Below are positions 10,264-27,521 of a DNA stretch of 64,000 bases, piece by piece. The translations under genes and the position numbers were made by a program. Location of the stretch: the sequence record ON528745, one strand, 5' to 3'. Every line of letters begins with the position of its first letter. The stretch's first letter is position 1. The notes below the pieces were generated by a model. That model was not told where the DNA came from. It saw nothing but the letters and a program-made list of their open reading frames with translations, and ran no database searches. This stretch comes from Shigella phage ESH35.

Positions 10264-11851
<1,588 letters not shown>

Positions 11852-11854
11852 GTT

Positions 11855-11884
11855 GTTTACAAGTCCCTCGTGTTGTGTTATAGT
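11855..11884 (+). promoter_or_regulatory. T4 early-type promoter upstream of alc
   Basis: GTTTACA, 17-nt spacer, TATAGT. Confidence 0.6.
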
Positions 11885-11908
11885 AGTCTTACTGACATAA
11901 CATGAGGA
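11855..11908 (+). repeat. 54-bp promoter/SD-sequestering hairpin module, copy A
   Basis: Identical to 27142-27195 except one base (C/T in the loop). Confidence 0.85.
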
Positions 11909-11912
11909 CTTT

Positions 11913-12419
11913 ATGATGGATTTGCAGCTTATTACTACTGAAATGGTCGTTGAAGCATACGGTGATACTACAGATGGGATTTCTGTATTCAAAGGAAATC
12001 GTCGAGTTGGATATATCACCGATCTTAAGAAAGATTTAGCTAAGCAAGTCAAGCGGAAAACGACCATTAAAGAATATCGAAATCGTCGTCTTGAGCAAGC
12101 CCGTGATATGCTTCCTGATGCGGTTGAGGAGATGAAAGTCTTTTTAGAAAATCAACTCGCTAAGTATGATTGTGAAGTGTTTATTAATCAGACTCAACCT
12201 AATGTTCATATCAATAGCTGCAAATGCTATATCATCGTTAATCCTTTGACAGGAAAGCATCGTCTTGGAATTAGTAATCCAAATCGTAGCGCATCGGATA
12301 TGGCAGAAGATGTTGCGGCGTGCTTTAAAATTTCTAAATCTCCGGCTGAACATCATATTTTAATTAACGGGCTTGCTCAAGACGATATTATAGAGGTTAT
12401 TAAAACTTTATGCATGTAA
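11913..12419 (+). CDS. alc: Alc (host transcription shutoff on cytosine DNA)
   Basis: 168-aa ORF between rnlA and the spanin pair, position and size of T4 alc. Confidence 0.7.
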   Translation: MMDLQLITTEMVVEAYGDTTDGISVFKGNRRVGYITDLKKDLAKQVKRKTTIKEYRNRRLEQARDMLPDAVEEMKVFLENQLAKYDCEVFINQTQPNVHINSCKCYIIVNPLTGKHRLGISNPNRSASDMAEDVAACFKISKSPAEHHILINGLAQDDIIEVIKTLCM

Positions 12420-17947: not shown

Positions 17948-18124
17948 ATGGCAAAACAAGCTAAAGCAAAGAAAGCAGTTGAAAAGAAAGTTGGTGATTC
18001 TAAACGCGCTGGTTACAAGCGTGGGTCGAACTCTCGTATCAATCAAACTGTTGAGAAGATCATGCGCCGAGCACGTGCGGTTCTTCGAGATGATGCTTCT
18101 CGTTTTGGTAAGCAGAAAGCATAA
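17948..18124 (+). CDS. Hypothetical small lysine/arginine-rich protein (58 aa; start uncertain)
   Basis: ORF MAKQAKAKKAVEKK...; followed immediately by a strong terminator hairpin. Confidence 0.45.
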   Translation: MAKQAKAKKAVEKKVGDSKRAGYKRGSNSRINQTVEKIMRRARAVLRDDASRFGKQKA

Positions 18125-18128
18125 GTTG

Positions 18129-18158
18129 AGGACTCCTTCGGGAGTCCTTTTTTATTTT
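18129..18158 (+). terminator. Rho-independent terminator
   Basis: AGGACTCC-TTCG-GGAGTCCT followed by TTTTTTATTTT. Confidence 0.8.
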
Positions 18159-18177
18159 CCAAAGATTGCATAAAGTT

Positions 18178-18207
18178 GTTTACAGTATGGTTCCTTTGTG
18201 ATAGTAT
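18178..18207 (+). promoter_or_regulatory. T4 early-type sigma70 promoter
   Basis: GTTTACA, 17-nt spacer, TAGTAT. Confidence 0.6.
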
Positions 18208-18234
18208 TATCTTACACAAACAAAGGAGAATAAA

Positions 18235-18567
18235 ATGAAAACGATTAATCTGAACGCTGCAGTTAAAGCTAAATGCTTCAATGGTGAATATAACGAAACT
18301 ATGTGGTTCTTAATGGCAGTTGAAGGTGATATTATTGAAGTAGAAACAACAGAAGGTATGGGAACAGATTTCACCTTTACAATTCAAGTTCATAATTTCT
18401 TTACTGGTTGGATTTATGAATTGAATACAGTAATCGTTGGAAAAATTGAACAAAATGAATTAGGTGAATGGTATTATGTTACAGCTCGCCAACGTGCCGA
18501 ACGCTTAATTGAGAAGATGAAAAAAGTCGGTAAGCTTGACATGAAGCACTGGAAAGTAGTAAAATAA
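18235..18567 (+). CDS. Hypothetical protein (110 aa)
   Basis: ORF with AAAGGAG RBS downstream of an early-type promoter. Confidence 0.55.
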   Translation: MKTINLNAAVKAKCFNGEYNETMWFLMAVEGDIIEVETTEGMGTDFTFTIQVHNFFTGWIYELNTVIVGKIEQNELGEWYYVTARQRAERLIEKMKKVGKLDMKHWKVVK

Positions 18568-22749: not shown

Positions 22750-22931
22750 AAGCTTACTTAGAAACAATTGTCGTGGCTCAAAAAGAAGGTGGAGATGTTT
22801 CCACTGCGGTATCGCAGGTTATTCTTGAATTCCCAGATAAACTAGCATATGATGAATTCACGGAAAGATTTGATCCATATGAAAAAGGTCCAAAGTTTGA
22901 AGTATATCGTACTCTTTTAGCTCTCTATTAA
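22746..22931 (+). CDS. Hypothetical small protein (61 aa)
   Basis: ORF overlapping the ligase stop; followed by a terminator hairpin. Confidence 0.45.
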   Translation: MKAYLETIVVAQKEGGDVSTAVSQVILEFPDKLAYDEFTERFDPYEKGPKFEVYRTLLALY

Positions 22932-22956: not shown

Positions 22957-22964
22957 TATAAATA
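22957..22964 (+). promoter_or_regulatory. T4 late promoter (TATAAATA) for alt
   Basis: Exact TATAAATA 24 nt upstream of the alt start. Confidence 0.6.
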
Positions 22965-22987: not shown

Positions 22988-25081
22988 ATGGAACTTATTA
23001 CAGAATTATTTGACGAAGATACTACTCTTCCGATTACAAACTTAAATCCAAAGAAGAAAATACCACAAATTTTTTCAGTTCATGTTGATGATGCAATTGA
23101 ACAACCAGGCTTTCGTTTATGTACCTATACATCTGGAGGTGATACTAATCGCGATTTAAAGATGGGCGATAAAATGATGCATATTGTTCCTTTTACATTA
23201 ACTGCTAAAGGCTCAATTGCTAAATTAAAAGGTCTTGGTCCAAGCCCAATTAATTATATCAATTCAGTTTTTACTGTTGCAATGCAAACGATGCGTCAAT
23301 ATAAAATTGATGCCTGCATGCTTCGTATTCTTAAGTCTAAAACTGCTGGCCAAGCTCGACAAATTCAAGTTATTGCTGATAGACTTATCCGTAGTCGTTC
23401 AGGTGGCAGATACGTCCTTCTTAAGGAACTCTGGGATTACGATAAAAAGTATGCATATATTCTTATACATCGCAAAAATGTATCATTAGAAGACATTCCA
23501 GGAGTTCCAGAAATTAGCACTGAACTCTTTACTAAAGTTGAATCGAAGGTCGGTGATGTTTATATCAATAAAGATACTGGAGCTCAAGTAACTAAAAATG
23601 AAGCAATTGCAGCATCTATTGCGCAAGAAAATGATAAACGTTCTGACCAAGCCGTAATCGTTAAAGTTAAAATTTCCCGTAGAGCAATTGCACAAAGTCA
23701 GTCATTGGAATCTTCTAGATTTGAAAGTGAATTATTCCAGAAGTATGAATCTACAGCAGCTAATTTTAATAAACCAGCTACTGCACCTTTAATTCCCGAA
23801 GCAGAAGAAATGAAAATTGGAATTAATTCATTAGCTTCTAAAACAAAGGCAGCAAAAATTATTGCTGAAGGAACGGCAGATGAACTTCACTATGATTATA
23901 AATTCTTTCCAATGAGTCAAGTCGGTGAAGTTTCAGAAAAAATTAAAGAAGTAATTTTTAATGCAATTAAAAATGAACCAACTACTTCAATAAAATGTTT
24001 AGAGAAATACGCAGCAGCTGTAAATCAATTCTTTGAAGATTATAAAGATAAATGGCTTGCTAATCATAATAAAAATCGTAAAGGACAACCAGATGAAGTC
24101 TGGGAAGAAATAACTAAAAATTCCTGGAACGCAGCAAAAACTAAATTCCTCAAACGAATGATTTACAGTTTTTCTGGAATTGGTGCTGGTCCAATGATTG
24201 ATATTACTATTGCCCGCGATGGTTCTAAATATACTCCATCACAAAAGCGTGGCATTAGAGAATATTGCGGTTCAGGATATACTGACATCAATAATCTTCT
24301 TTTAGGTCGTTACAATCCAGAACGATATGATGTAATGAGTGAAAAAGAAATTGAATCTGCTATAAATAACTTAGATTCAGCTTTTGAAAATGGTGACCGT
24401 ATACCAGAAGGCATTACAGTTTATCGTGCTCAAAGTATGACTGCTCCTATATATGAAGCGTTAGTTAAAAATAAAGTGTTCTACTTCAGAAATTTTGTAT
24501 CTACTTCTTTAACTCCTATCATTTTTGGACGTTTTGGAATCACACATGCTGGTATTGGTCTTTTAGAACCAGAAGCTCGCAATGAATTAACAGTTGATAA
24601 AAATGAAGAAGGAATAACTATTAATCCAAACGAAATAAGAGCGTATAAAGAAAATCCTGAATACGTTAAAGTTCAAATAGGATGGGCAATTGATGGAGCT
24701 CATAAAGTTAATGTTGTATATCCAGGAAGTCTCGGAATAGCAACAGAAGCTGAAGTTATTCTACCGCGTGGATTGATGGTCAAAGTTAATAAAATAACTG
24801 ATGCTTCTAATAATGACGGAACAACATCTAATAATACAAAACTCATTCAAGCTGAAGTTATGACCACGGAAGAGCTCACCGAATCGGTAATCTATGACGG
24901 AGACCATTTAATGGAAACCGGTGAAGTAGTTGCAATGACAGGTGATACTGAAATAGAAGACAGAGTTGACTTTGCATCATTTGTTTCATCAAACGTTAAA
25001 CAGAAAGTAGAATCATCTCTTGGAATTATTGCGTCTTGCATAGATATTACAAACATGCCTTACAAGTTCGTTCAAGGATAA
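22988..25081 (+). CDS. alt: Alt-like NAD-protein ADP-ribosyltransferase (virion-packaged type), copy 1
   Basis: 697-aa product starting MELITELFD; ART R/STS/ExE motifs (VYRAQ, FVSTSLTP, ATEAEVILPRG); late promoter TATAAATA just upstream. Confidence 0.85.
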   Translation: MELITELFDEDTTLPITNLNPKKKIPQIFSVHVDDAIEQPGFRLCTYTSGGDTNRDLKMGDKMMHIVPFTLTAKGSIAKLKGLGPSPINYINSVFTVAMQTMRQYKIDACMLRILKSKTAGQARQIQVIADRLIRSRSGGRYVLLKELWDYDKKYAYILIHRKNVSLEDIPGVPEISTELFTKVESKVGDVYINKDTGAQVTKNEAIAASIAQENDKRSDQAVIVKVKISRRAIAQSQSLESSRFESELFQKYESTAANFNKPATAPLIPEAEEMKIGINSLASKTKAAKIIAEGTADELHYDYKFFPMSQVGEVSEKIKEVIFNAIKNEPTTSIKCLEKYAAAVNQFFEDYKDKWLANHNKNRKGQPDEVWEEITKNSWNAAKTKFLKRMIYSFSGIGAGPMIDITIARDGSKYTPSQKRGIREYCGSGYTDINNLLLGRYNPERYDVMSEKEIESAINNLDSAFENGDRIPEGITVYRAQSMTAPIYEALVKNKVFYFRNFVSTSLTPIIFGRFGITHAGIGLLEPEARNELTVDKNEEGITINPNEIRAYKENPEYVKVQIGWAIDGAHKVNVVYPGSLGIATEAEVILPRGLMVKVNKITDASNNDGTTSNNTKLIQAEVMTTEELTESVIYDGDHLMETGEVVAMTGDTEIEDRVDFASFVSSNVKQKVESSLGIIASCIDITNMPYKFVQG

Positions 25082-25084
25082 ATC

Positions 25085-27142
25085 ATGGAACTTATTACAG
25101 AATTATTTGACGGCGCTTCGGCGCCGGTTGTTAACTTAAATCCTAAGCATAAAATACCACAAATTTTTGCTATTCAAGCCGGTGAAGAAAGCGTGCTTCC
25201 TGGATTTAGATTTTGTACATACACCTCTGGCGGTGATACGAATAAAAACGTTAAGCCAGGCGACAAAATGATGCATATCGTAATGATAGGCGTCAACGAG
25301 AAATTATCGTTAGTTAAGCTTAAAAACTTGGGTGGAAATCCAATTGGCGTCATTAATGCGGTTTTTGATACTGCTCTTCAAACAATGAAACAGTATAAAA
25401 TTGATGCATGCCTATTCCGCGTACTAAAAAGTAAAACAAATGGCGCTGCTCGTCAAATGCAAGTTATTGCTGACCGTTTAGTACGTACTAAAGGAGCAGG
25501 TCGATATGTTCTTTTAAAGGAAATCTGGGACTATGATAAGAAATACGCATATATTATGGTTTACCGTAAAAATGCCAATTTAGAAGACATTCCAGGTGTA
25601 CCTCCTATTTCAACTGAGTTATTCACAAAAGTTGAATCAAAGGTTGGTGATGTTTATGTAGACGTTAAAACAGGTAATGCTGTTCCTAAAGCTGTCGCAG
25701 TTGCTGCTTCTATTGCTTTAGAAAATGATAAGCGTACGGATCAAGCTGTTATTCAGAAAACTAAAATTAGTCGTCGATTAGCAGCACAAGCTCAATATTC
25801 TACTGTTGATGCTTCACTTCAGGGTGATAGCTTCGCTGCTAAGAAATATCAAGAGTTTGAATCTAAAGTTCCGGTATATAAAGCAGAAGGACCAATGAAC
25901 TCTGGCGTTATTCAGATTGGTTCAAACTTCAGCAAAGGAGCTATCGGTGGTATGAGAAGTGCTTCTCGTTTTAAATCTAACGATTATGAACTAGAAAGCT
26001 TCCGAAATCATATTGCATTAGCCCATGCACGTTTACGTGATCCATCTATCAAGTTGCAGAGCGATATAACATATCAAAGTTCTCAAGAATATTTAAAGAA
26101 TAAAGAATTTTTTGATTATAAAACTGATAAAATTTTAAGCGATCTTGCTGACATTAATATTTCTAATAGCTTTGATGTTATTAAGAAAATTGTCAATGAT
26201 TTAGTTAAAGGTTCTAAAGCTACGCCAGATGAAAAGACAGCTATTATTCAATTTGTCATGAATGGCATTTATAAATTAATTGATGAATCCGCTGCTCAGG
26301 CGTATGAATATGCAAGCACTGAAGTAACTCCAAAAGGATTGACTCAGGCTGAGTCTGATGTAATTGAAGATTATTGCGCAGATTCGTATGTTGAAATGAA
26401 CTCATTCCTTTTAGGTAAACCTGATTCTACACGTGAAGAATACATGGAGCGCGCTATTAAGCACATCGAGACTATGGATTCTGCGTTTGCTAAAGGTTCA
26501 GTTCTTCCTCCGGGAACTACACTTTACCGTGGCCAAGAAGTTACTTTTAAAACTTTACGTCATAATATAGAAAATAAAATGTTCTATTTCAAGAACTTTG
26601 TATCTACTTCACTCAAGCCAAATATCTTCGGTGAATATGGTAAAAATTATATGGCTTTAGATGACGCTGGAACAGTATTTTCTGGTGAAGGAGAAGGTTC
26701 AGTTGATGCTGAAGATTTAATGCATATGGGTAGTCATTCTACATATGCGAATGAAGACGCTGAAACTAATGTAGGTATGGTAATTAAAGGAGCTGAACGA
26801 GTTAAAGTTATCGTTCCAGGTCATTTATCAGGATTTCCATCCGAAGCTGAAGTTATTTTGCCGCGTGGAATTTTACTGAAGATTAATAAAGTAAGTACGT
26901 ACATGATGAAAGAAACCGCTTATAATAAGTATCTAATTGAAGGCACGATTGTTCCTCCTTCTGAACAATTAGAGGAATCGGTATATGATGGTGACCATTT
27001 GATGGAAACCGGAGAAGTTCGTCCAATGGCTGGATTTAATCAATTCCTTGTAGAAGAATCAAAAGAAGAGGAAAGCGAAGTTTCTCAAATCTTAGCTTCT
27101 TTGGTTAACATCAACGGAATGTCTAAAAAGTTCAAAATGTAG
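25085..27142 (+). CDS. Alt-like ADP-ribosyltransferase paralog, copy 2
   Basis: 685-aa product also starting MELITELFD; ART motifs (LYRGQ, FVSTSLKP, PSEAEVILPRG); N- and C-terminal regions similar to copy 1, central region divergent. Confidence 0.8.
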   Translation: MELITELFDGASAPVVNLNPKHKIPQIFAIQAGEESVLPGFRFCTYTSGGDTNKNVKPGDKMMHIVMIGVNEKLSLVKLKNLGGNPIGVINAVFDTALQTMKQYKIDACLFRVLKSKTNGAARQMQVIADRLVRTKGAGRYVLLKEIWDYDKKYAYIMVYRKNANLEDIPGVPPISTELFTKVESKVGDVYVDVKTGNAVPKAVAVAASIALENDKRTDQAVIQKTKISRRLAAQAQYSTVDASLQGDSFAAKKYQEFESKVPVYKAEGPMNSGVIQIGSNFSKGAIGGMRSASRFKSNDYELESFRNHIALAHARLRDPSIKLQSDITYQSSQEYLKNKEFFDYKTDKILSDLADINISNSFDVIKKIVNDLVKGSKATPDEKTAIIQFVMNGIYKLIDESAAQAYEYASTEVTPKGLTQAESDVIEDYCADSYVEMNSFLLGKPDSTREEYMERAIKHIETMDSAFAKGSVLPPGTTLYRGQEVTFKTLRHNIENKMFYFKNFVSTSLKPNIFGEYGKNYMALDDAGTVFSGEGEGSVDAEDLMHMGSHSTYANEDAETNVGMVIKGAERVKVIVPGHLSGFPSEAEVILPRGILLKINKVSTYMMKETAYNKYLIEGTIVPPSEQLEESVYDGDHLMETGEVRPMAGFNQFLVEESKEEESEVSQILASLVNINGMSKKFKM

Positions 27143-27171
27143 TTTACAAGTCCCTCGTGTTGTGTTATAGT
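27142..27171 (+). promoter_or_regulatory. T4 early-type promoter (repeat copy B)
   Basis: GTTTACA, 17-nt spacer, TATAGT. Confidence 0.6.
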
Positions 27172-27195
27172 AGTTTTACTGACATAACATGAGGA
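27142..27195 (+). repeat. 54-bp promoter/SD-sequestering hairpin module, copy B
   Basis: Near-identical to 11855-11908. Confidence 0.85.
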
Positions 27196-27202
27196 ACACA
27201 AA

Positions 27203-27493
27203 ATGAAATCTTCTTTGCGCTTTTTAGGTCAAGAACTCGTCGTTGAGGGCGTTATTCCCGCTGATAACGCTTTCAATGAAGCAGTTTATGATGAATTTAT
27301 TAAAATTTTCGGAACCGATAAAAAGTTTGGAATTTTTCCTTCTGAAAATTTTTCAAAGCCAGAACAGACTGAAAGTATTTTCCAAGGTGTAGTAACAGGT
27401 AAATTTGAGTCAGAAGCTCCGGTAAAAATTGAGGTTTATATTGAAGAAACCTCTGTTGCTTCAGTTGCTGCTTTTATTTCATTTCGTAAATAA
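27203..27493 (+). CDS. Hypothetical protein (96 aa)
   Basis: ORF with GAGGAA RBS downstream of the repeated early promoter/hairpin module. Confidence 0.5.
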   Translation: MKSSLRFLGQELVVEGVIPADNAFNEAVYDEFIKIFGTDKKFGIFPSENFSKPEQTESIFQGVVTGKFESEAPVKIEVYIEETSVASVAAFISFRK

Positions 27494-27499
27494 AAATAT

Positions 27500-27517
27500 G
27501 GGGACCTTTCGGTCCCC
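27500..27517. terminator. Bidirectional terminator hairpin between convergent operons
   Basis: GGGGACC-TTTC-GGTCCCC flanked by A-rich and T-rich tracts. Confidence 0.65.
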
Positions 27518-27521
27518 ATTG

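Follow-up and report, generated by a model that had tools for sequence, protein, structure and literature searches.

A duplicated early-promoter cassette that may tie translation of alc and alt.-3 to its own transcripts in T4-type phages

The window analysed here, a stretch of 64,000 nucleotides from Shigella phage ESH35 (ON528745), can be assigned to Tequatrovirus as a close relative of T4, with best matches to ECML-363, AR1 and REP2 at 98-99% identity, and its + strand corresponds to the early-gene strand of T4. On this strand, rnlA (gene 63; 10727-11851, the start coordinate being taken by homology with T6) is followed by alc, the gene of the host-transcription inhibitor (11913-12419; an open reading frame with a Pfam ALC match at E = 8e-91), whose start in the T4 annotation is the second ATG, at 11916. 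Further along the same strand lie alt (22988-25081), an intact second alt paralogue of 685 aa with an ADP-ribosyltransferase domain (25085-27142), and alt.-3 (27203-27493), an open reading frame for a 96-aa protein assigned by Pfam to DUF5498 and kept in other genera at 36-58% identity. The alt.-3 unit is closed against gene 54 by a terminator-like feature from the terminator scan (27498-27519), a perfect 9-bp hairpin, GC-rich and with a T-run on each strand, between the converging alt.-3 and 54, which is likely a bidirectional terminator. In T4, alt.-1 and alt.-2 match residues 1-56 and 62-116 of the second alt paralogue (T4 locus L001, 7066-7451), and the end of alt.-2 also matches the C-terminal end of the paralogue at the DNA level; the two T4 genes are therefore what is left of this paralogue once about 1.7 kb of its interior had been deleted, and do not represent a duplication of the start of alt alone.

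The intervals upstream of alc and alt.-3 share a module of 54 bases. The 54-mer GTTTACAAGTCCCTCGTGTTGTGTTATAGTAGTCTTACTGACATAACATGAGGA occurs exactly at 11855-11908 (+; copy 1), in the rnlA-alc intergenic region and with the same sequence in T4, and again at 27142-27195 (+; copy 2) with one mismatch (C34T, in the hairpin loop described below); the T4 counterpart of copy 2 carries G40A. Shuffled window sequences yielded no match to the 54-mer. Both edges of the identity are sharp: it begins with GTTTACA and ends with GAGGA, and beyond these the sequence around the two copies is unrelated. A preliminary description of this DNA, made from the sequence alone, had reported a 54-bp duplicate with one mismatch in unrelated contexts before alc and a 96-aa ORF; exact search, shuffles and flank comparison bear this out, and the ORF proved to be the conserved gene alt.-3. 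The stop codon of rnlA is 4 nt before copy 1, with no terminator predicted in the intervening interval. Copy 2 is placed between the second alt paralogue and alt.-3, its first base being the last base of the paralogue stop codon, and the T4 deletion in the paralogue, which adjoins this copy, has no end inside the module.

In both copies, the promoter scan identified TTTACA, a 17-base spacer and TATAGT, with TG two bases before the -10 hexamer, a combination that carries the signature of a sigma-70 early promoter of T4 type (GTTTACA-17-TGn-TATAGT). The -35 element GTTTACA of copy 1 is at 11855-11861 (+) and its extended -10, TGT plus TATAGT, at 11876-11884 (+), from which we infer a start site near 11891, about 7 nt past the -10. 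An alignment of 28 cassettes from several genera agrees with this assignment, in that GTTTACA, T22, T25, A26 and T30 are invariant and G23 is nearly so, T25, A26 and T30 being the TAnnnT of the -10. The late-promoter motif TATAAATA is found inside neither copy.

The same 54 bases are predicted to fold into a hairpin. In copy 1, the 5' arm (11866-11880, +) sits in the promoter spacer and consists of the anti-Shine-Dalgarno CCTC and 11 more bases, and the 3' arm (11893-11907, +) ends in the Shine-Dalgarno GAGG at 11904-11907; in copy 2, the arms occupy 27153-27167 and 27180-27194 (+), with GAGG at 27191-27194. All four arms were delimited with RNAfold, together with the opening cost for the two 3' arms. 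The two arms, CCTCGTGTTGTGTTA and TGACATAACATGAGG, pair over their full length in 15 pairs, 3 of them G-U, as the preliminary description had it. That description had also put the -10 TATAGT within the 5' arm, which is correct for the last 2 arm bases only, as the rest of the hexamer lies in the loop together with the expected start point. The RNAfold structure contains in addition a 4-bp inner stem and, in copy 1, 5-6 outer pairs into the unique flank, so that the 5' arm of the minimum-energy fold runs outward to 11861. The folding energies are -24.4 kcal/mol (z = -5.4) for copy 1 and -23.0 kcal/mol (z = -4.8) for copy 2, and none of 200 shuffles folded as stably as the real copies; the folding check proposed with the first description therefore returned a stable, non-random hairpin in both cases (z about -5). 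An RNA that starts after the -10 is unstructured (z = +1.1). Opening of the alc ribosome-binding site (16 nt, Shine-Dalgarno to AUG) is predicted to cost 16.9 kcal/mol in read-through RNA versus 3.6 kcal/mol in promoter-proximal RNA, and the corresponding values for alt.-3 are 13.7 and 2.8 kcal/mol, a predicted drop of 11-13 kcal/mol for both genes when the RNA begins at the embedded promoter.

The antisense strands fold at -15.4 and -17.2 kcal/mol, 6-9 kcal/mol worse than the sense strands, because three of the pairs are G-U; the pairing is therefore a feature of the RNA of the transcribed strand and does not reflect a DNA palindrome. The terminator scan gave no intrinsic terminator at either copy, and a T-run 3' of the hairpin is absent at both (ACTTTATG and AACACAAA), the tails downstream of the hairpins reading ACUUUAUG and AACACAAA. 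Two candidate identities were rejected: an intrinsic (Rho-independent) terminator as the main function, as there is no U-run and the scan was negative at both sites, and a curated Rfam RNA family, as the covariance models gave no match at either copy at E <= 1.

Transcripts that enter the two modules from upstream have several candidate sources. In T4, the middle promoters PnrdB+ (139,878) and PI-TevIII (138,939) lie upstream of rnlA and alc, and alt and alt.-3 are preceded by P30.2 and P30 (PMC2988021, Table 1). In the window, the late-promoter motif TATAAATA at 22957-22964 (+), which ends 23 nt 5' of the alt start codon, is a probable source of late RNA reading through copy 2; no + strand terminator was predicted between 22964 and 27142, the sole nearby site (22804-22817) being upstream of the motif. 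As no + strand terminators were predicted between these middle and late promoters and the two copies, the published middle promoters and the late motif upstream of alt can, to judge from their positions, supply read-through RNA. Across the whole window, TATAAATA occurs 19 times versus 9.4 expected, mostly on the - strand at 33-63 kb, an excess that fits late promoters of the structural-gene block.

With moderate confidence, we propose that the cassette is an early promoter carrying its own translational licence, with a hairpin that hides the ribosome-binding site in all other RNAs. The spacer of the early promoter would carry the complement of the Shine-Dalgarno region of the next gene. As the 5' arm is in the spacer, any start past the -10 excludes it, and an RNA from the embedded promoter, starting in the loop about 7 nt past the -10, would have a short open leader and be translated. 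An RNA started upstream, from the middle promoters before nrdB-rnlA or before gene 30 or from the late promoter of alt, would hold both arms and form a hairpin of about 20 bp that buries GAGG, leaving alc or alt.-3 untranslated. The net effect would be to tie translation of alc and alt.-3 to the few minutes in which their own early promoter fires. We infer the start site, the read-through and the translational block; masking in read-through RNA and an open promoter-proximal RNA, both anticipated in the preliminary description, draw support at the sequence level from the folding, the strand asymmetry and the opening cost given above and from the covariation described below.

The closeness of the upstream stop codons, which precede copy 1 by 4 nt and share the first base of copy 2, with a TAG stop overlapping GTTTACA in other genera, could also be read as translational coupling, in which alc and alt.-3 on read-through RNA are translated only if the ribosome ending rnlA or alt melts the stem. 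Termination obliges a ribosome to unwind roughly 6 nt, and the core helix, which begins 11 nt into the module, is thus beyond its reach under the usual ribosome geometry; moreover, coupling would make a promoter of its own superfluous, and we regard this explanation as improbable. Nevertheless, the outer pairs of the hairpin might be disrupted in part by ribosomes that terminate at the upstream stop, a point against promoter-gated translation.

The distribution of the module was surveyed in phage and host sequences. A blastn search with the 54-mer against 50,697 phage records matched 997 places in 499 records, about two per genome and all at least 94% identical, and all 499 records are Tequatrovirus, with none outside the genus. 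In IMG/VR, a 20-mer of the module had two occurrences in each of five T4-like genomes or bins and none elsewhere, and it was absent from 5,426 complete E. coli genomes; the search for further copies, which had been suggested as a check, thus ended with two near-identical copies per genome and none in other phage genera or in these E. coli genomes. The copies occupy the same two loci in the four genomes examined in full, as well as in the IMG/VR loci retrieved with the Alc and Alt.-3 proteins. Orthologous copies show the same identity as the flanking genes, which gives the module no conservation within the genus beyond that of the sequence around it; between the two copies of a single genome there are 1-5 base differences. 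The earlier idea of a mobile or recently duplicated cassette does not survive these observations of about two copies per genome, fixed loci, absence outside the genus and identity equal to that of flanking genes; the repeat appears instead to be an old, fixed feature of the genus, neither recent nor mobile. Recombination between the copies, which had also been considered, would delete about 15 kb including genes 30 and 31, which are essential in T4, and no such product was seen. A mobile multi-copy element and an origin from host or plasmid were likewise rejected, given two fixed copies per genome and none in the E. coli genomes.

Variation within Tequatrovirus leaves the hairpin intact. Among the variants in T6, GBLB0003 and the IMG/VR genomes, its energy stays at -22 to -27 kcal/mol, and changes at stem positions are mostly structure-neutral or strengthening. 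Both G16A and G40A turn wobbles into Watson-Crick pairs, as in T4, which holds both copies, the alc copy identical to that of the window and the alt.-3 copy with a U-G wobble made U-A by G40A. The pair C15-G50 has become U-G in the alt.-3 copy of T6 and U-A in that of GBLB0003, a series that reads as a stepwise compensatory path, and C11T lets the helix reach into the unique flank of copy 2. Weakening variants are G16T (T6) and G40T (GBLB0003), each of which makes one pair weaker. As regards continuing gene conversion between the two copies, the alleles A16 and C27 are present at both loci in different genomes, but most genomes have independent variants.

The main comparative evidence comes from the rnlA-alc spacers of 11 GenBank genera and 46 IMG/VR loci, the latter collected with an Alc alignment as query because a single-protein query retrieved only close relatives in IMG/VR. 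The T4 layout upstream of alc, present in at least six Tevenvirinae genera, was also found in Dhakavirus, Gelderlandvirus, Jiaodavirus, Karamvirus, Winklervirus and four further IMG/VR lineages: GTTTACA is directly followed by a 5' arm that opens with an anti-Shine-Dalgarno (CTCC or CCTC), and the 3' arm has GGAG or GAGG at its end. The inner arms differ between lineages yet remain complementary (ATCTCCGTTTAGTT/AACTAAACGGAGAT, ATCCTCATCAG/CTGATGAGGAT and TCCTCATTTCGTT/AACGAAATGAGGA), and changes of the Shine-Dalgarno between GGAG and GAGG are matched by changes between CTCC and CCTC in its partner. Among 17 distinct non-T4 sequences, aligned with a covariance model built from 9 in-register sequences and hence fitted to, and biased towards, the model structure, 93.9% of pair cells hold standard pairs, and both sides have changed in 10 of the 14 pairs. 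This bias is mitigated in part by three controls: the covariation score is 0.498 versus 0.191 in shuffles, none of 500 shuffles reaching 0.498; sliding the partner by 1-3 columns lowers pairing to 31-51% of cells; and RNAalifold, run on the same structure-fitted alignment, predicts the same outer helix unaided, with 7 compensatory pairs. A plain MAFFT alignment of the class-A sequences (A2) was out of structural register, with the T4-type arm off by 3 columns. A first model search (A5) mixed in antisense matches and other promoters and misregistered most T4-type rows (the two alc copies together with the alt.-3 copies of T4 and the window); because this register was wrong, the T4-type sequences were treated in a separate analysis and did not enter the formal pair count.

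These comparisons bear on the simplest alternative, that the hairpin is functionless and the repeat a neutral leftover of duplication between two ordinary promoters. A module no more conserved than its flanks within the genus would suit such a history, but the folds are strongly non-random and the alc hairpin shows compensatory covariation across genera; we give this explanation almost no weight, as it is already contradicted by the alc covariation and the RNAalifold result.

Masking is not universal, however. The hairpin of Kanagawavirus and of some Acinetobacter phages stops immediately 5' of the alc Shine-Dalgarno and leaves it unmasked, and the alc promoter of Mosigvirus has only a small hairpin within the spacer, with the Shine-Dalgarno unmasked; masking of alc is therefore not obligatory. 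The alc promoter of Acinetobacter phage ZZ1 (locus L015, 615-660; also L062) overlaps a perfect hairpin, AACCCATTATG...CATAATGGGTT, followed by TTTATTCTTTTT, a terminator-like stem-loop with a T-run behind it and the -10 hexamer in its 3' arm. Gapriverviruses (VR25, locus L009, 457-690) carry one more small ORF in the rnlA-alc interval, which bears the annotation 'inhibitor of host transcription', and two alc-like pieces are present in some of their records (hits H81 and H82); the masking hairpin of this genus, GGTTCCATCA/TGATGAGGACC, is located before that ORF, with its 5' arm downstream of the putative -10.

Promoters upstream of alt.-3 in other genera indicate how the second copy may have been acquired. 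In Dhakavirus, Gaprivervirus, Karamvirus, Gelderlandvirus and Mosigvirus, alt.-3 is preceded by an early promoter of a different class, in which a small hairpin lies wholly within the spacer, with a loop close to AAGGAAG, and leaves the Shine-Dalgarno free; its stem also covaries (CACC/GTGG, GCAC/GTGC and TCCAC/GTGGA). Spacer hairpins of this class were located at L018 8942-8998, L019 12857-12916, L074-L087, L088 5024-5081 and L007 641-703. The alc-type cassette is found at the alt.-3 site in Tequatrovirus only, and the older alt.-3 promoters share with the alc cassette GTTTACA and AACATGAGGA, which are the exact ends of the 54-base identity. Copy 2 most likely arose when the alc cassette overwrote an older alt.-3 promoter in the Tequatrovirus ancestor, and the shared ends GTTTACA and AACATGAGGA could have bounded such a conversion. 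In Mosigvirus, the other hairpin class is present at both the alc and the alt.-3 sites; the two are about 75% similar, which suggests that an exchange has also taken place the other way round.

This apparent exchange of promoter type between the two sites in two genera raises the question of whether the module is an element of the DNA, that is, a cruciform, a palindrome bound by a protein, or a site of recombination or mobility by which the cassette spreads. Precedent exists in the promoter-early stem-loop cassettes of T4-like phages, or PeSLs (Arbiol 2010, PMC2839356; Comeau 2014, PMC4122927), which recombine with one another and form mini-circles in RB49/phi1 (PMC2839356). Against this stand the 3 G-U pairs among 15, the much poorer pairing of the complementary strand and the covariation through G-U intermediates, as well as the number of copies, about two per genome (the 997 in 499 records), with none outside the genus or in host genomes; a role at the DNA level is thus very improbable.

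The proposed element joins two known ideas, the masking hairpins of T4 genes and the PeSL cassettes. Inhibitory hairpins at translation initiation regions have been described for T4 e, soc, 49 and I-TevI (McPheeters 1986 and later; PMC3014915), and alc and alt.-3 resemble them in that the Shine-Dalgarno is buried in the long RNA, by prediction within a stable helix, and a promoter within the 5'-arm region would give a shorter, translatable RNA. The internal promoter of those genes is late (or middle), leading to a late switch-on, whereas the promoter embedded before alc and alt.-3 is of the sigma-70 early class and would reverse the timing; since it is early-type and neither copy contains TATAAATA, the cassette is a variant in timing, not in mechanism. 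A local hairpin that blocks 30S binding on read-through RNA is likewise known from mobE (Aeh1), segB and I-TevII/III (cited in PMC3014915), but the hairpins of these homing endonucleases limit selfish genes, and neither an early promoter in the 5' arm nor cross-genus covariation is described there. The 2010 review (PMC3014915) does not name alc, alt.-3 or 30.8 (discussed below) as masked genes, and the accessible literature, a search that left outside the main T4 genome review and older sequence papers, contained nothing specific on their masking or on T4 start-site maps. What is new here would be a comparatively well supported further example of a known T4 trick, for which the cross-genus comparison is the main new evidence.

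With PeSLs, the cassette shares an intergenic position, an AT-rich upstream region, a sigma-70-like early promoter with a 3' Shine-Dalgarno and ATG, and a stem-loop in the spacer or over the -10; the stem-loops of RB49/phi1 lie between -35 and -10 or over -10 (PMC2839356). Like PeSLs, it recurs within the genome and is implicated in the exchange of cassettes; PeSLs occur as many similar copies clustered in hyperplastic regions, beside insertions and deletions. It differs in that its 3' arm is the Shine-Dalgarno itself, that no T-run follows, and that only two near-identical, fixed copies exist. PeSL stem-loops have been interpreted as terminators or attenuators and recombination sites, and those of PST and T4 are drawn upstream of the promoter (PMC2839356, PMC4122927).

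The remaining early promoters of the window allow this interpretation to be weighed for the alc and alt.-3 cassette. There are eight canonical + strand early promoters, at 1557, 2293, 2733, 11855, 15158, 18178, 18570 and 27142, and at all eight a hairpin spans the region from the spacer to beyond the -10; in four, the Shine-Dalgarno is uninvolved. At the GTTTAC promoters at 1557, 2293, 2733, 15158 and 18570, which have the PeSL layout, the hairpin reaches z = -3.1 to -5.4 in four of five cases and the Shine-Dalgarno is usually free. A more general function of these hairpins is thus possible, which speaks against our model, and the alc and alt.-3 hairpins could be insulators of the PeSL type that attenuate or terminate upstream transcription, or mark the 3' end of rnlA or alt RNA for processing or stabilisation, with masking of the Shine-Dalgarno as a by-product. 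One RB49/phi1 PeSL stem-loop cut lacZ expression as strongly as rrnB T1 (PMC2839356), and the ZZ1 alc promoter combines such a hairpin with a T-run. Neither copy of the module, however, is followed by a T-run or scored by the terminator scan; a terminator needs no Shine-Dalgarno in its 3' arm, yet the pairing has been kept by compensatory changes in at least 9 lineages, including the swap of GGAG/CTCC for GAGG/CCTC. We therefore consider the insulator reading unlikely, although it carries more weight than any other alternative raised here.

If promoter-gated translation holds, T4-type phages would use the early promoter of alc itself to confine Alc, which shuts off host transcription, to the first minutes of infection. 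Early-promoter stem-loops, so far read as terminators and recombination sites, would gain a testable function, and in the engineering of T4-like phages or the borrowing of their early promoters, the promoter spacer and the ribosome-binding site would have to be handled as one unit. A wider extension is tentative and, in our view, possible at best: T-even early promoters may commonly carry in the spacer a 5' arm that silences or insulates the next cistron in RNAs started elsewhere, PeSL stem-loops being in part translation licences instead of terminators and time-gating proteins such as Alc, with cassettes of different hairpin classes swapped between alc and alt.-3 by conversion.

The promoter of gene 30.8 (18178-18237; ORF 18235-18567) is a third early promoter of the same design. 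Its spacer sequence TTCCTTTG pairs with the Shine-Dalgarno region CAAAGGAG at -12.1 kcal/mol (z = -2.1), and the predicted cost of opening the ribosome-binding site is 8.1 kcal/mol in read-through RNA versus 0.5 kcal/mol in promoter-proximal RNA. Under the model, Alt.-3 and gp30.8, both small conserved proteins, would be limited in the same way as Alc, with no extra regulator needed. At 18080-18163, Rfam gave a sub-threshold match to the Rhizobiales sRNA Atu_C8 (31 bits versus a gathering score of 50); a terminator-like hairpin at 18128-18149 falls in the same interval, and the match most likely reflects chance resemblance to a terminator stem. The 30.8 promoters of NP4 (locus L019, 18358-18429, - strand) and JS98 (locus L018, 17816-17888, - strand) have different arms, which are again complementary.
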